The translations under genes and the position numbers were made by a program. A model generated the notes under the pieces. That model was not told the DNA's origin and did not search any database. It saw only the letters and a program-made list of their open reading frames with translations. A stretch of DNA of 59,420 bases from Thiotrichales bacterium (GTDB taxonomy: Bacteria > Pseudomonadota > Gammaproteobacteria > GCF-002020875), in NCBI GenBank assembly GCA_018658305.1, contig JABHVM010000073.1, positions 1-59,420 on the forward strand, given 5' to 3'. Positions 43,281 through 46,474 of this stretch are shown piece after piece (the stretch's first letter is position 1; each line of letters starts with the position of its first letter).

Positions 43281-44027
43281 TTACAGCTTCGATATCCATT
43301 CTAGATTTAGATAACCACCACCATCAGCATCATCTCCTGCAATGACTTTACACTCACTATCTGGTTCACCTAAACCATCCAATACTAAAGCTGCCCCACT
43401 AAAGTCATCTTTATCTGTATAGCCATTCACAGTAATTACAGTCTTTAAACCAGCTGCTTGAGAAGATAGAATTCCATTGCGAGAGTCTTCAAAAGCTATA
43501 CAGTCCGCAGCATCTAACCCTAACTCATCTAGTACATAATTGTATATATCGGGAGCCGGTTTCTTGTTTGGGATAATATCTCCAGCCCCAATAACTTTAA
43601 ACCAAGCCGCAGCTCCAGGAAAGAGCGCATACTCTAACAGAGCGGATACATTCTGTGGAGTTGTAGTTGTTGCAATTGCGAGGGTAACTTTAGCATTATG
43701 AGCCTCAGTTAACAGACGACGCACGCCACTACGGAGTGGGATTTTACCGTCCTCTAATAGCTTAACAAAGTGACGAGTTTTAGCCGCATGTAGCTCAGCT
43801 ATCCACTCTTTCATATCTCCAACTTTAGGAATTGATGGTTTTTTACTATCAATAAAGTGGAGAATTCTCTCCTTACCACCTGTAACTGAGAGTAGCTCAC
43901 CGTAGAGCTCCTCACTCCAATTCCACTCTAATCCAGCTTCATTAAATGCGAGGTTAAAAGCGACACGATGTCCGTCCCGCTCTGTGTCAGCTAAAGTTCC
44001 ATCCACATCAAAAATAAGTGCTCTCAT
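43281..44027 (-). CDS. cbbY: HAD-superfamily phosphatase, CbbY-like
   Basis: 248 aa. HAD motif I FDVDGTLADTERDGHRVAFN, plus further CbbY-like blocks (GGKERI, IATTT, FEDSRNG). Confidence 0.8.
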   Translation of the reverse strand: MRALIFDVDGTLADTERDGHRVAFNLAFNEAGLEWNWSEELYGELLSVTGGKERILHFIDSKKPSIPKVGDMKEWIAELHAAKTRHFVKLLEDGKIPLRSGVRRLLTEAHNAKVTLAIATTTTPQNVSALLEYALFPGAAAWFKVIGAGDIIPNKKPAPDIYNYVLDELGLDAADCIAFEDSRNGILSSQAAGLKTVITVNGYTDKDDFSGAALVLDGLGEPDSECKVIAGDDADGGGYLNLEWISKL

Positions 44028-44071: not shown

Positions 44072-44110
44072 AGCCCCTATTTAACTACAGCTGTAGCTAA
44101 ATAGAGGGCT
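44072..44110. repeat. 39-nt near-perfect palindrome in the divergent cbbY/dksA intergenic region
   Basis: AGCCCCTATTTAACTACAG|CTGTAGCTAAATAGAGGGCT, with a perfect 12-bp core palindrome CTACAGCTGTAG and arms carrying one bulge and one mismatch. Confidence 0.6.
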
Positions 44111-44253
44111 GATTATAACATGAACCCTTATAATCTCTTACGATATAAATTGCAAATCTCTTAATAATCTGTTAATAATACACAGTTATTAGTGACTATT
44201 AGTGATGTATTGATAGTTTTAGAATTGCTTACTTATAAAATTGAAGAGGATAT

Positions 44254-45117
44254 ATGATGGCTACCGTAAAGAAAAAGACAGTTAAAAAGAAGAAGATAGC
44301 GACAAATAAAACGGTAGCAGTAAAAAAGAAAGTAGTTAAAAAAAGTCCATCTAAGAAAAAGTCAGTGAAAAAAAGTATCGCTAAGAAAAAAGTTGTTAAG
44401 AAAAAAGTAGCCAAAAAGAGTGTTGTTAAGAAAAAAGTTGTAAAGAAAAAGGTGGCTAAAAAGAGCGCTGTTAAGAAAAAAGTTGTAAAGAAAAAGGTGG
44501 CTAAAAAGAGCGCTGTTAAGAAAAAAGTTGTAAAGAAAAAGGTAGCTAAAAAGAGCGCTGTTAAGAAGAAAGTTGTAAAGAATAAGGTGGTCAAGAAAAA
44601 AGTGGCTAAAAAAAGTGCGTCACCAGTAAGTGGTTCGATAAAAAAACTGACGAATAACAGTCAGTTAAAAGGAAGATCTAAAGTAGCATCTAGAAGAAAA
44701 TCAATTCAGCATCTGCCAGGAAATATTAAGCCATATAAGAATAAGCGTGGTGAAATCTATATGAATACTGAACAGAAAGCCCACTTCAAAAATATCCTAC
44801 TATTTTGGAAGCACGATTTAATGGCGGAAGTTGACCGCACAGTTCACCACATGCAAGATGAGACCATCCACCTTGCTGACCCAAATGATCGAGCAACCTT
44901 AGAGGAGGAGTTTTCACTTGAGCTGAGAACTCGTGATCGTGAACGCAAACTTATTCGTAAAATTGATAAAACTCTGCATGAACTAGATTCGGATGAGTAT
45001 GGATATTGTGAATCTTGCGGCATAGAGATTGGAATTCAACGCCTTGAAGCTCGCCCTACTGCCAACCTCTGTATCGACTGTAAAGAGTTACAAGAGATCA
45101 AAGAGAAGACTACTTAA
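44254..45117 (+). CDS. dksA: RNA polymerase-binding transcription factor DksA with a lysine-rich repeat N-terminal extension
   Basis: 287-aa uninterrupted ORF. The C-terminal part is colinear with E. coli DksA, including the DPNDRA tip and the CESC...CIDC zinc finger. The N-terminal ~125 aa are K/V/A/S repeats. SD GAAGAGGA lies before ATG 44254. Confidence 0.85.
44380..44604 (+). repeat. 45-bp coding tandem repeat (~5 copies) encoding [15 protein letters not shown]
   Basis: 44425-44469 and 44470-44514 are identical. 44515-44559 differs at 1 nt. The flanking copies (44380-44424, 44560-44604) are degenerate. Confidence 0.9.
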
Positions 45118-45148
45118 TTTTATTCGATCGCTTGGCTTGGATGGGAGA

Positions 45149-46009
45149 GTGAAAAAGCAGTTAAAGGGGCGTTTTGCTCCCTCTCCTAGCGGAGACCTCC
45201 ATTTTGGATCACTAGTTGCTGCAGTAGCAAGCTATCTAGAGATAAAAAAAACTGATGGAGAGTGGTTGGTAAGAGTTGAAGATATAGATCCACCACGAAT
45301 AGTAGAGGGTGCTAGCAGTGCCATACTGCAGAGCTTAGAGTCTCACCATCTCTATTGGGATGGTGAAGTTAGCTATCAAAGTAAGCGTATCCACCACTAT
45401 CAAGAGGTGATGGAAAATCTAAAAAGATCCAACCTTATATATGGATGTGAATGTAGCCGCAAGCAGCTAAAAGGGGTATATCCCTACCCTAAGCTATGTC
45501 GTAATCTTACTCTGCCAATTAACCACATCTCAACAAATCAGCGTAACTATGCGCTTCGTATTAAAACTAAATCAGAAGAGATAAATATGAGTGATCTCTG
45601 GCTTGGAGATCTATCTTGGAATATGGAGAGCGATATTGGGGACTCTATTTTACAGCGTGCAGATGGCATATTTAGCTACCACCTGGCTGTTGTAGTTGAT
45701 GATTTTTTACAAGGTATAACTCAAGTAATTAGAGGCTCTGATCTGCTCGATTCAACCCCCATACATATTCACCTCCAACAACTTCTTGGTTACAACACCC
45801 CGCAATATGGACACATTCCGACAGCAACCAATAGTGATGGTGTTAAACTTAGCAAGCAGTATGGAGCCAAGCCACTTAACAACAACTCTCCTCTAGATAA
45901 TATATTTCTGGCTCTTCAGTTTTTAGGAGCTAACCCACCCAGCAAACTCAGAGATCACTCTTTAGACACGCTTTGGAGTTGGGCTTTAGAGAACTGGAAA
46001 ACCAGGTAA
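45149..46009 (+). CDS. gluQ: Glutamyl-Q tRNA(Asp) synthetase
   Basis: GRFAPSPSGDLHFGSL (HIGH-like), WLVRVEDIDPPR, AVVVDD and KLSKQ match E. coli YadB/GluQRS. The likely start is GTG 45149 (or TTG 45137), after the dksA stop. The ORF-track start 45029 lies inside dksA. Confidence 0.88.
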   Translation: MKKQLKGRFAPSPSGDLHFGSLVAAVASYLEIKKTDGEWLVRVEDIDPPRIVEGASSAILQSLESHHLYWDGEVSYQSKRIHHYQEVMENLKRSNLIYGCECSRKQLKGVYPYPKLCRNLTLPINHISTNQRNYALRIKTKSEEINMSDLWLGDLSWNMESDIGDSILQRADGIFSYHLAVVVDDFLQGITQVIRGSDLLDSTPIHIHLQQLLGYNTPQYGHIPTATNSDGVKLSKQYGAKPLNNNSPLDNIFLALQFLGANPPSKLRDHSLDTLWSWALENWKTR

Positions 46010-46012
46010 TTT

Positions 46013-46474
46013 ATGAATAATCCCACTCAACAATTTACCAACAATAAACAAAATACCTACCTAGAGAAGTTTAATGGTTCATTTAACAGCCTTTTACAGT
46101 GGGATGATCTTACAGAATTTTGGAGACTACTTAGTAGAAGCGAAGAGTCTTGGTATATATACACTGTTGGAAAACTGCCACCAACTGAGCCAACCACATC
46201 TAAAATATTTATCAGTTTCATAGAGGAGATTGATAAGTTACTGCGCCGAGAACATGATAGTCGTATCTGTGGAATTGTCTATAGTGACAACAGCAAGTTC
46301 CCTAGTATAGTTAAGATATATGATCCTAACAATCTTGGGATTTCATGTGGCTCCAGCGAGACCCCTCCTCTACCTGGATGGGTACTCTCTTTAGATCCAC
46401 CAGAAGATTTAGAGCCGGTTCAGATATTACCAAATAATCGCAAACGCTGGTGGAGTAGAGTGTTAGGCAATTAA
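46013..46474 (+). CDS. Hypothetical protein
   Basis: 153 aa. Starts 4 nt after the gluQ stop. Protein-like composition. No motif recognised. Confidence 0.5.
   Translation: MNNPTQQFTNNKQNTYLEKFNGSFNSLLQWDDLTEFWRLLSRSEESWYIYTVGKLPPTEPTTSKIFISFIEEIDKLLRREHDSRICGIVYSDNSKFPSIVKIYDPNNLGISCGSSETPPLPGWVLSLDPPEDLEPVQILPNNRKRWWSRVLGN

Follow-up and report, generated by a model that had tools for sequence, protein, structure and literature searches.

The dksA locus

The window, by which we mean the whole stretch of 59,420 nucleotides that was analysed, carries on its forward strand a single uninterrupted open reading frame of 287 aa (44254..45117 in the list of open reading frames), which codes for both a lysine-rich N-terminal tail and a C-terminal DksA core. 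The features of the locus are as follows.

44229..44594, reverse strand: antisense 'shadow' open reading frame of 121 aa, rich in F, T and L, produced by the repeat (list of open reading frames)
44243..44250, forward strand: SD-like GAAGAGGA, read directly, whose GAGG end lies 7 nt 5' of ATG 44257
44254..44259, forward strand: two adjacent ATG start codons, 44254 and 44257 (sequence and translation of the open reading frame)
44257..44628, forward strand: polycationic low-complexity tail, residues 2-125 of the open reading frame, 90% K/V/A/S, no acidic residues, predicted to be disordered
44380..44604, forward strand: five 45-bp (15-aa) units in codon register, with the core units at 44425, 44470 and 44515 (TRF, unit comparison)
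44629..44709, forward strand: Ser/Thr/Lys/Arg-rich linker from the repeats to the DksA core, without in-frame ATG, GTG or TTG, variable in the alignment and of low pLDDT
44710..45114, forward strand: DksA core, residues 153-287, with N-terminal segment, coiled coil, zinc finger and C-terminal helix (HMMs, alignment with E. coli, structural model)
44878..44895, forward strand: coiled-coil tip motif DPNDRA, residues 209-214, corresponding to E. coli D71, D74 and A76 (residue mapping)
45007..45081, forward strand: C4 zinc finger CxxC...CxxC (C252, C255, C273, C276), corresponding to E. coli C114, C117, C135 and C138, then K139
45149..46009, forward strand: gluQ (glutamyl-Q tRNA(Asp) synthetase), with GTG 45149, 31 nt past the dksA stop, as its most likely start

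In identical loci gluQ is called as a protein of 286 aa with a PF00749 domain. The linkage of dksA and gluQ has been described for Gammaproteobacteria (PMC3542578), and a wider order, smc-queF-...-dksA-gluQ, is conserved in relatives. Those with 72-73% identity in the DksA core combine this order with tails of ~100 aa, on MAG contigs of 2.7-2.85 Mb. A terminator scan found no terminator between dksA and gluQ, and promoter-like sites are no commoner at the locus than the shuffled expectation. Scans of the window with Rfam and for tRNAs returned nothing in or near the dksA locus, and a structured RNA was rejected as an explanation of the repeat on these grounds.

Which of the two adjacent ATG codons starts the protein? 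The first-pass annotation, made from the letters of the sequence, had seen an SD ahead of ATG 44254, and an SD-like element does lie there, at 44243-44250. ATG 44257 is the more likely start of the two, since its spacing to this element is better and the N-terminus that it gives, MATVKKK, fits the conserved MA(A)KKK of homologues. In our alignment this N-terminus is common to 31 diverse homologues, and members from NCBI of the cluster formed at 90% identity around the window protein (e.g. P0121, P0123) begin with MATVKKK, that is, at the second ATG.

The same annotation had read tail and core as one frame of 287 aa, had placed the beginning of DksA homology upstream of the internal Met at 44761, and had concluded that choosing another start would not remove the extension. 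All of this holds. Homology begins at residue 153 (nt 44710), ahead of Met170 (nt 44761), and there is no in-frame ATG, GTG or TTG between the last repeat unit (~44613) and Met170. As no start codon separates the tail from this conserved methionine, the tail is not removable by re-annotation, and since more than 100 homologues and every copy-number variant keep it in frame, the open reading frame is not a product of chance. The long start is the correct annotation, and we strongly infer that the tail is translated. The antisense frame of 121 aa was rejected as a gene; the same situation exists in Xanthomonas, where XCV2557 lies opposite dksA and the case was settled for dksA by proteogenomics.

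A conserved DksA core

In the proteobacterial control of growth rate and starvation, ppGpp has DksA as its central partner, and to our knowledge nearly all mechanistic work on DksA has been done on the 151-aa protein of E. coli. In the window protein, Pfam DksA_N (PF21157) matches residues 174-243 (E 9.7e-31, 106.3 bits vs a cutoff of 27) and zf-dskA_traR (PF01258) residues 249-280 (E 1.3e-11, 44.8 bits vs 24.9). TIGR02420 scores 164.9 bits, above its cutoff of 115.5, and the enterobacterial full-length equivalog NF008045 stays below its own (199.2 vs 289). The match to E. coli DksA (1TJL) has an E-value of 3.2e-53 and aligns residues 153-285 with E. coli 16-147; 5VSW and 7KHI, structures of its complexes with RNAP, are found as well. 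Identity in the core is 66% over 128 aligned residues (E. coli 19-147).

The residues D71, D74, A76, R91, K94, L95, K98, R125, R129 and K139 of the E. coli protein are all conserved, as are the four cysteines. Among them are the basic residues of ppGpp site 2, which we take to be R91, K94, K98, R129 and K139 and which are all kept; nearby, R124 is replaced by Gln and N88 by Thr. The structure of the protein was predicted with AlphaFold2. The core is modelled with block-mean pLDDT values of ~58-92, mostly above 80, and helices at 171-204, 209-244 and 273-285, and a Foldseek search with the model gave 1TJL, 5VSW and 7KHI as the only significant matches (E ~1e-10); the model has the fold of DksA, in which a long antiparallel coiled coil is combined with a globular zinc domain and a C-terminal helix. 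Residues 1-152 are modelled at pLDDT ~41-52 and without secondary structure; a tail of ~150 aa is thus predicted to be intrinsically disordered.

The window protein therefore shares with E. coli DksA (1TJL, 5VSW, 7KHI) the tip, the C4 zinc finger, the site-2 residues, the fold and the downstream gluQ. The two differ at the N-terminus: E. coli DksA has ~15 residues before the start of the alignment, whereas the window protein has ~150 aa of polycationic repeat before its core. To judge from this conservation, the gene is the dksA orthologue with the usual housekeeping role in a marine Thiotrichales bacterium, and its product would regulate RNA polymerase (RNAP) together with ppGpp through the secondary channel.

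A lysine-rich tail made of repeats

The extension had been described as almost only K, V, A and S and as built from a 45-bp repeat with two identical copies and a third that differs at 1 nt, a description that stands in every part. Residues 1-125 contain 60 K, 30 V, 13 A and 10 S, together 113 of 125 (90%). Over residues 1-150 the net charge is +68 with not a single Asp or Glu, and the core has a net charge of -5. TRF reports a period of 45 bp with 4.6 copies and 94% matches at 44382-44588; the units, in codon register, have their first bases at 44380, 44425, 44470, 44515 and 44560. Those at 44425 and 44470 are identical and the one at 44515 is off by 1 nt, a synonymous change from GTG to GTA, while the unit at 44380 differs from that at 44425 by five synonymous and two non-synonymous, conservative codon differences.

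Runs of A in the tail are never longer than 7 nt, with AAA and AAG Lys codons interleaved, and this is matched by 0.08% of 5000 codon shuffles. In the allele with one copy, which lacks the duplicated units, 0.34% of shuffles equal the observed value; because repeat units are not independent, the avoidance of A-runs is supportive of a coding tail, but short of decisive. The mostly synonymous differences between diverged units likewise speak for a tail that is coding. In eight other tailed lineages the same test falls nominally below 5% of shuffles in two (L002, 0.024; L012, 0.04). The other six give no such signal, which suggests that it is specific to KKK-rich tails such as that of the window. 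Within the window itself, Lys tails are not a visible habit: the only other Lys-rich open reading frame is that of IF3, which has an ordinary Lys-rich linker.

Repeat number among near-identical strains

From the perfect repeats, variation in copy number had been predicted, and it exists. Twenty-eight proteins make up the 90% cluster to which the window protein belongs, and they are named as DksA of 'Thiotrichales bacterium' MAGs. One of the samples behind the cluster comes from Saanich Inlet at 100 m. The proteins of the cluster are otherwise identical, and their lengths of 256, 271, 286, 301, 316 and 331 aa correspond to one to six 15-aa units, all in frame, with the proviso that short-read assemblers can mis-count perfect 45-bp repeats and reported copy numbers may be wrong.

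When the units are told apart by their nucleotide differences, the window has the array A-A-B, an exact number of units that is uncertain because perfect 45-bp copies are hard for short reads. The most frequent allele has B only, and the flanks are 99.5-99.9% identical. An allele with four copies was found in five assemblies, made from different samples, and each time its SNPs mark out the array A-x1-A-B. Even the minimal allele with one copy still carries a tail of ~120 aa.

Distribution of tailed DksA proteins

How common is such a tail? The first-pass annotation had held the architecture to be unusual and had proposed to look for it in homologues. The search was made, and the claim did not survive it. 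With the full-length protein as query, the best 120 homologues listed are all 220-308 aa long and have DksA domains, and most also match HC2 compositionally; K-rich N-termini are present in all 16 that were examined of these 120. A second search with the core only covered 1.84 billion cluster representatives at 50% identity, of which the best 150 were assessed. At least 40 aa lie ahead of the core in 105 of the 150, and 71 of the 150 have in addition at least 20% Lys, a count that is inflated, since variable tails split into many 50% clusters and short DksA proteins collapse into few.

A view that is based on loci rather than clusters is given by contigs from one genome per species. Among the 80 best-matching loci, 11 have long N-termini rich in K, A and P (~100-280 aa), 9 medium and 52 short ones. 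Short, medium and long forms all occur within the Halieaceae. The long tails of other lineages also consist of in-frame tandem repeats, with periods of 12, 15, 18, 24, 30, 48 and 60 bp, and these differing periods point to independent expansions.

The first-pass annotation had also proposed to see whether the fusion is conserved in related genomes. The relatives at 72-73% core identity have it, and the nearest one does not. In the nearest species-level genome, the Piscirickettsiaceae MAG L001, the DksA core is 83% identical and the order HAD/dksA/gluQ/153-aa open reading frame is the same. Its DksA has 145 aa and begins MAAKKKKQSTLLVGGIKPYK, with only MAAKKKKQ ahead of the core. A relative this close that has no long tail indicates that the tail is dispensable for DksA function.

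By these comparisons of sequences, DksA with a tail is not unusual but widespread in environmental Gammaproteobacteria, and the tail comes, goes and changes its length rapidly, while the MAxKKK seed stays conserved. It looks like, and is better described as, an in-situ, in-frame low-complexity expansion at the N-terminus of DksA rather than a domain fusion.

Histone-H1-like proteins and published precedents

The tail had been likened to histone H1 and AlgP. In composition this is justified; as a statement of homology it is not. All HMMs of such proteins score below their cutoffs: PF07382 (HC2) reaches 29.1 vs 40, NF038052 17.5 vs 135, and NF038053 (Burkholderia H1-like) 34.2 vs 80. With only two Pro in residues 1-125 there are no KPAA repeats, and the tail is not of the AlgP type. 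A search with the N-terminal region alone, another of the checks suggested at the outset, covered 5.8 billion proteins and found no protein family; its one match is an unrelated protein with a similar Lys tail at the C-terminus, which gives no evidence for the fusion of a stand-alone H1-like gene. Hc2, the Burkholderia H1-like proteins and AlgP were accordingly rejected as homologues, by score or for want of the repeat type, and are regarded as analogues only. The likeness to H1 and AlgP is one of composition only.

As analogues they are nevertheless instructive. Pseudomonas AlgP, PhaF and Chlamydia Hc2 (PF07382) have, like the window protein, disordered polycationic tandem repeats, and in their case these tracts bind DNA or polyphosphate (polyP). 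The repeat number of AlgP and Hc2 varies between clones or serovars (for Hc2, PMC2848022), as it does here. AlgP needs its Lys-rich repeat tail to associate with polyP granules and the nucleoid, and Lys-rich tracts such as the KPM of EngA and SrmB bind polyP non-covalently. The window tract differs from those of AlgP, PhaF and Hc2 in its repeat unit, has no detectable homology to them, and is joined to an RNAP-binding factor.

Two DksA proteins with extensions have been described before. In Xanthomonas euvesicatoria, proteogenomics led to the re-annotation of dksA from 147 to 256 aa, with translation of the extension shown by the MS peptide AAPAAAKPAAKPVASK and by start-codon mutagenesis; a processed DksA variant was seen beside the long form, and the antisense XCV2557 was discarded (PMC5559785). 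This protein is, like that of the window, gammaproteobacterial, with a basic low-complexity extension at the N-terminus, an upstream start and a spurious antisense frame. Its tail is rich in Ala, Pro and Lys, as the peptide illustrates, and is encoded by a GC-rich genome, while the window tail consists of Lys, Val, Ala and Ser with almost no Pro. The re-annotation paper is silent on the function of the tail and on repeat copy-number variation (PMC5559785), and the extension also goes unmentioned in a functional study of DksA from X. citri.

The second precedent is DdbA of Streptomyces coelicolor (SCO2075), in which an H1-like DNA-binding tail is combined with a DksA-like domain (PMC3643593). 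EMSA showed that the H1-like N-terminal domain binds DNA and that the DksA-like domain does not. Overexpression of DdbA suppresses a relA phenotype, its knockout has phenotypes, and the length of the tail differs among species (PMC3643593). The window protein has the same layout, with a Lys-rich low-complexity N-terminus and a C-terminal DksA in one polypeptide. DdbA is, however, an actinobacterial DksA-like paralogue that is distant from E. coli DksA (the paper gives E 8e-11, vs 3e-53 for the window protein), and its orthologues were found only in streptomycetes (PMC3643593), which implies that the architecture is convergent, not orthologous. From this restriction and the weak match to E. coli DksA, orthology of the window DksA with DdbA is unlikely. 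Beyond the Xanthomonas re-annotation and the Streptomyces DdbA we found no literature on the spread or function of gammaproteobacterial DksA tails. What the window encodes may thus best be called a DksA with a histone-H1-like polycationic tail, of a kind that is widespread in Proteobacteria.

A possible role of the tail

What could such a tail do? Translation from ATG 44257 (or 44254) would place a disordered tail of ~150 aa and a net charge of ~+68 before a canonical DksA core. The tail arose and changes its length by in-frame slippage or recombination of Lys-rich units of 15 bp and 45 bp, and these units appear to grow from the short MAxKKK seed with which DksA proteins of the short form already begin. 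By electrostatic contact and without sequence specificity it would bind polyanions, and we consider this its most likely function. The example of DdbA makes DNA the likeliest partner; polyP or RNA would be possible by analogy with AlgP and the KPM targets. In structures of DksA with RNAP, the N-terminus of DksA belongs to the globular domain, which sits at the edge of the secondary channel, and from there a flexible tail of 150 aa could reach nearby DNA. Binding to polyanions would enrich DksA on the nucleoid, close to RNA polymerase that is transcribing or bound at promoters, and the length of the tail would adjust how much DksA is free and how much is bound. Binding and its regulatory effect are both drawn entirely by analogy with DdbA, AlgP, PhaF and Hc2. 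The picture of a housekeeping DksA with a disordered tail that was grown by slippage and holds the protein near the nucleoid through polyanions is the one that we favour, and it is probably, though by no means surely, correct. Against a function of the tail stand the nearest relative L001, which does without it, and the patchy occurrence of tails within one family, and copy-number change among near-identical strains agrees with weak or relaxed constraint no less than with tuning.

These last observations lead to an explanation without function, in which a disordered N-terminus that tolerates insertions carries a Lys-rich seed that slips, and the length of a nearly neutral low-complexity expansion drifts without an adaptive role in targeting. 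It would account for a nearest relative that lacks the tail but keeps the MAAKKKK seed, for the distribution of 11 long, 9 medium and 52 short N-termini among the best-matching 80 genomes, for one to six copies among near-identical strains, for the absence of a protein family matched by the tail alone and for the similar Lys tail at the C-terminus of an unrelated protein. Drift would less readily explain that independent lineages hold the composition tightly, always K-rich with A, V, P or T and never acidic, that diverged units differ mostly synonymously, and that slippery A-runs are avoided. Tailed forms have moreover been retained in clades that have their gene order in common and ~72% core identity, and in Streptomyces the same architecture arose and its knockout has phenotypes. 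We therefore regard a neutral origin as unlikely on balance, though as a serious contender. A tail that serves as a regulatory handle instead of a DNA tether appears rather improbable: it would bind the polyP that starving cells make, or be a pro-region sensitive to proteases, so that sequestration, or processing to the canonical size, sets the amount of active DksA. The processed variant beside the long form in Xanthomonas (PMC5559785), the non-covalent binding of polyP by Lys-rich tracts as in EngA and SrmB, the localisation of AlgP to polyP granules and the regulation of polyP accumulation by DksA in E. coli, the last according to work as cited in other papers, all fit this idea; the homologue alignment, however, shows no conserved cleavage motif in the variable linker.

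Should the tail be doubted altogether? It might be untranslated, with a protein that starts internally, at Met170 or a non-canonical codon, and an open frame that is a by-product of an A-rich repeat. At least one public gene call does start at the internal Met (P0125, 118 aa), and the repeat keeps even the antisense frame open for 121 aa, which makes an open frame alone weak evidence. A start at Met170 would, however, drop 17 residues that homologues conserve and that align with 16-32 of E. coli DksA, and between the repeats and Met170 there is no ATG, GTG or TTG to replace it. The conserved SD and MA(A)KKK start, the in-frame state of all length variants and the upstream start used experimentally in Xanthomonas (PMC5559785) also point the other way, and we give this explanation very little credence. 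Even less likely is that the repeat tract, or its join to dksA, is a spurious product of assembly. Perfect 45-bp copies are hard to assemble from short reads, and the spread of one to six copies across assemblies would be in line with such errors; but more than 100 independently assembled contigs contain the same gene with the same flanks, the four-copy array A-x1-A-B is identical in five assemblies from different samples, the one-copy allele retains ~120 aa of tail, and tailed orthologues lie on contigs of 2.7-2.85 Mb.

Turning back to a tail that binds polyanions, what would follow from it? Many environmental Gammaproteobacteria encode a DksA with a long, polycationic and disordered tail that evolves through slippage of its repeats and differs even between strains that are nearly identical. 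If it tethers DksA to DNA or polyP, DksA would find RNA polymerase differently, and the state of the nucleoid or of polyP may be linked to the stringent response. A more speculative extension, which we think decidedly doubtful, is that the array works as a contingency-type 'rheostat': slippage by 45 bp would yield strains or subpopulations with one to six extra cationic units, each length with its own partition of DksA between the nucleoid or polyP and free RNAP. If this were true, the set-point of the stringent response would be diversified within a marine population, and a large share of environmental Gammaproteobacteria would use a form of DksA regulation, tethered to the nucleoid, that has been overlooked under the paradigm of E. 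coli.

For practical purposes, copy numbers from short-read assemblies should be distrusted, the antisense open reading frame can be dismissed as spurious, and the long start is the right one.

Start sites and gene calls around dksA

Downstream of dksA, the glutamyl-Q tRNA(Asp) synthetase gene gluQ and the reading frame that follows it were delineated as listed here, together with the counterpart of the latter in L001, a Piscirickettsiaceae MAG and the nearest species-level relative.

45029-46009: gluQ as a mechanical ORF, opening at TTG 45029 within dksA
46013-46474: conserved ORF of 153 aa, directly after gluQ
L001 4611-5123: its counterpart of 170 aa, directly after gluQ

The true start of gluQ is likely GTG 45149, which yields a protein of 286 aa, and this is also the length found in gene calls at identical loci. 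A terminator scan of the 31-nt gap between dksA and gluQ found none. For the ORF after gluQ no Pfam matches are on record; its window and L001 versions share the motif ...GSSETPPLPGWVLS...

In another assembly the window dksA gene (P0125) is publicly called from an internal Met as a protein of 118 aa (MNTEQ...), a call that cuts off conserved DksA residues. Such a start is likely a mis-annotation in some MAGs. The loci L003, L026, L028 and L055, with a gammaproteobacterial-type dksA, come from MAGs named Pedobacter, Bacteroidia or Klebsiella, probably through wrong binning or labelling of the contigs.

Upstream DNA and the lysine repeat

The region 5' of dksA and the strand opposite its repeat hold the following features.

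43281-44027, minus strand: HAD-family hydrolase gene, divergent from dksA
44074-44107: palindrome CCCCTATTTAACTACAGCTGTAGCTAAATAGAGG with a 15-bp stem, between these two genes
44155-44179: short direct repeat AATCTCTTAAT, 2.3 copies, closely upstream of dksA
44187-44205: short direct repeat TATTAGTGAC, 1.9 copies, closely upstream of dksA
44229-44594, minus strand: antisense ORF of 121 aa, F/T/L-rich, mirroring the Lys repeat

The palindrome may serve as an operator or represent a repeat element. The antisense ORF is almost certainly spurious, comparable to XCV2557, the discarded ORF opposite dksA in Xanthomonas.

Outside the window, an unrelated protein of 240 aa retrieved with the tail alone (P0285) ends in a C-terminal KKKAAKKK... 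tail, which shows that similar Lys repeats have also been added to proteins other than DksA.
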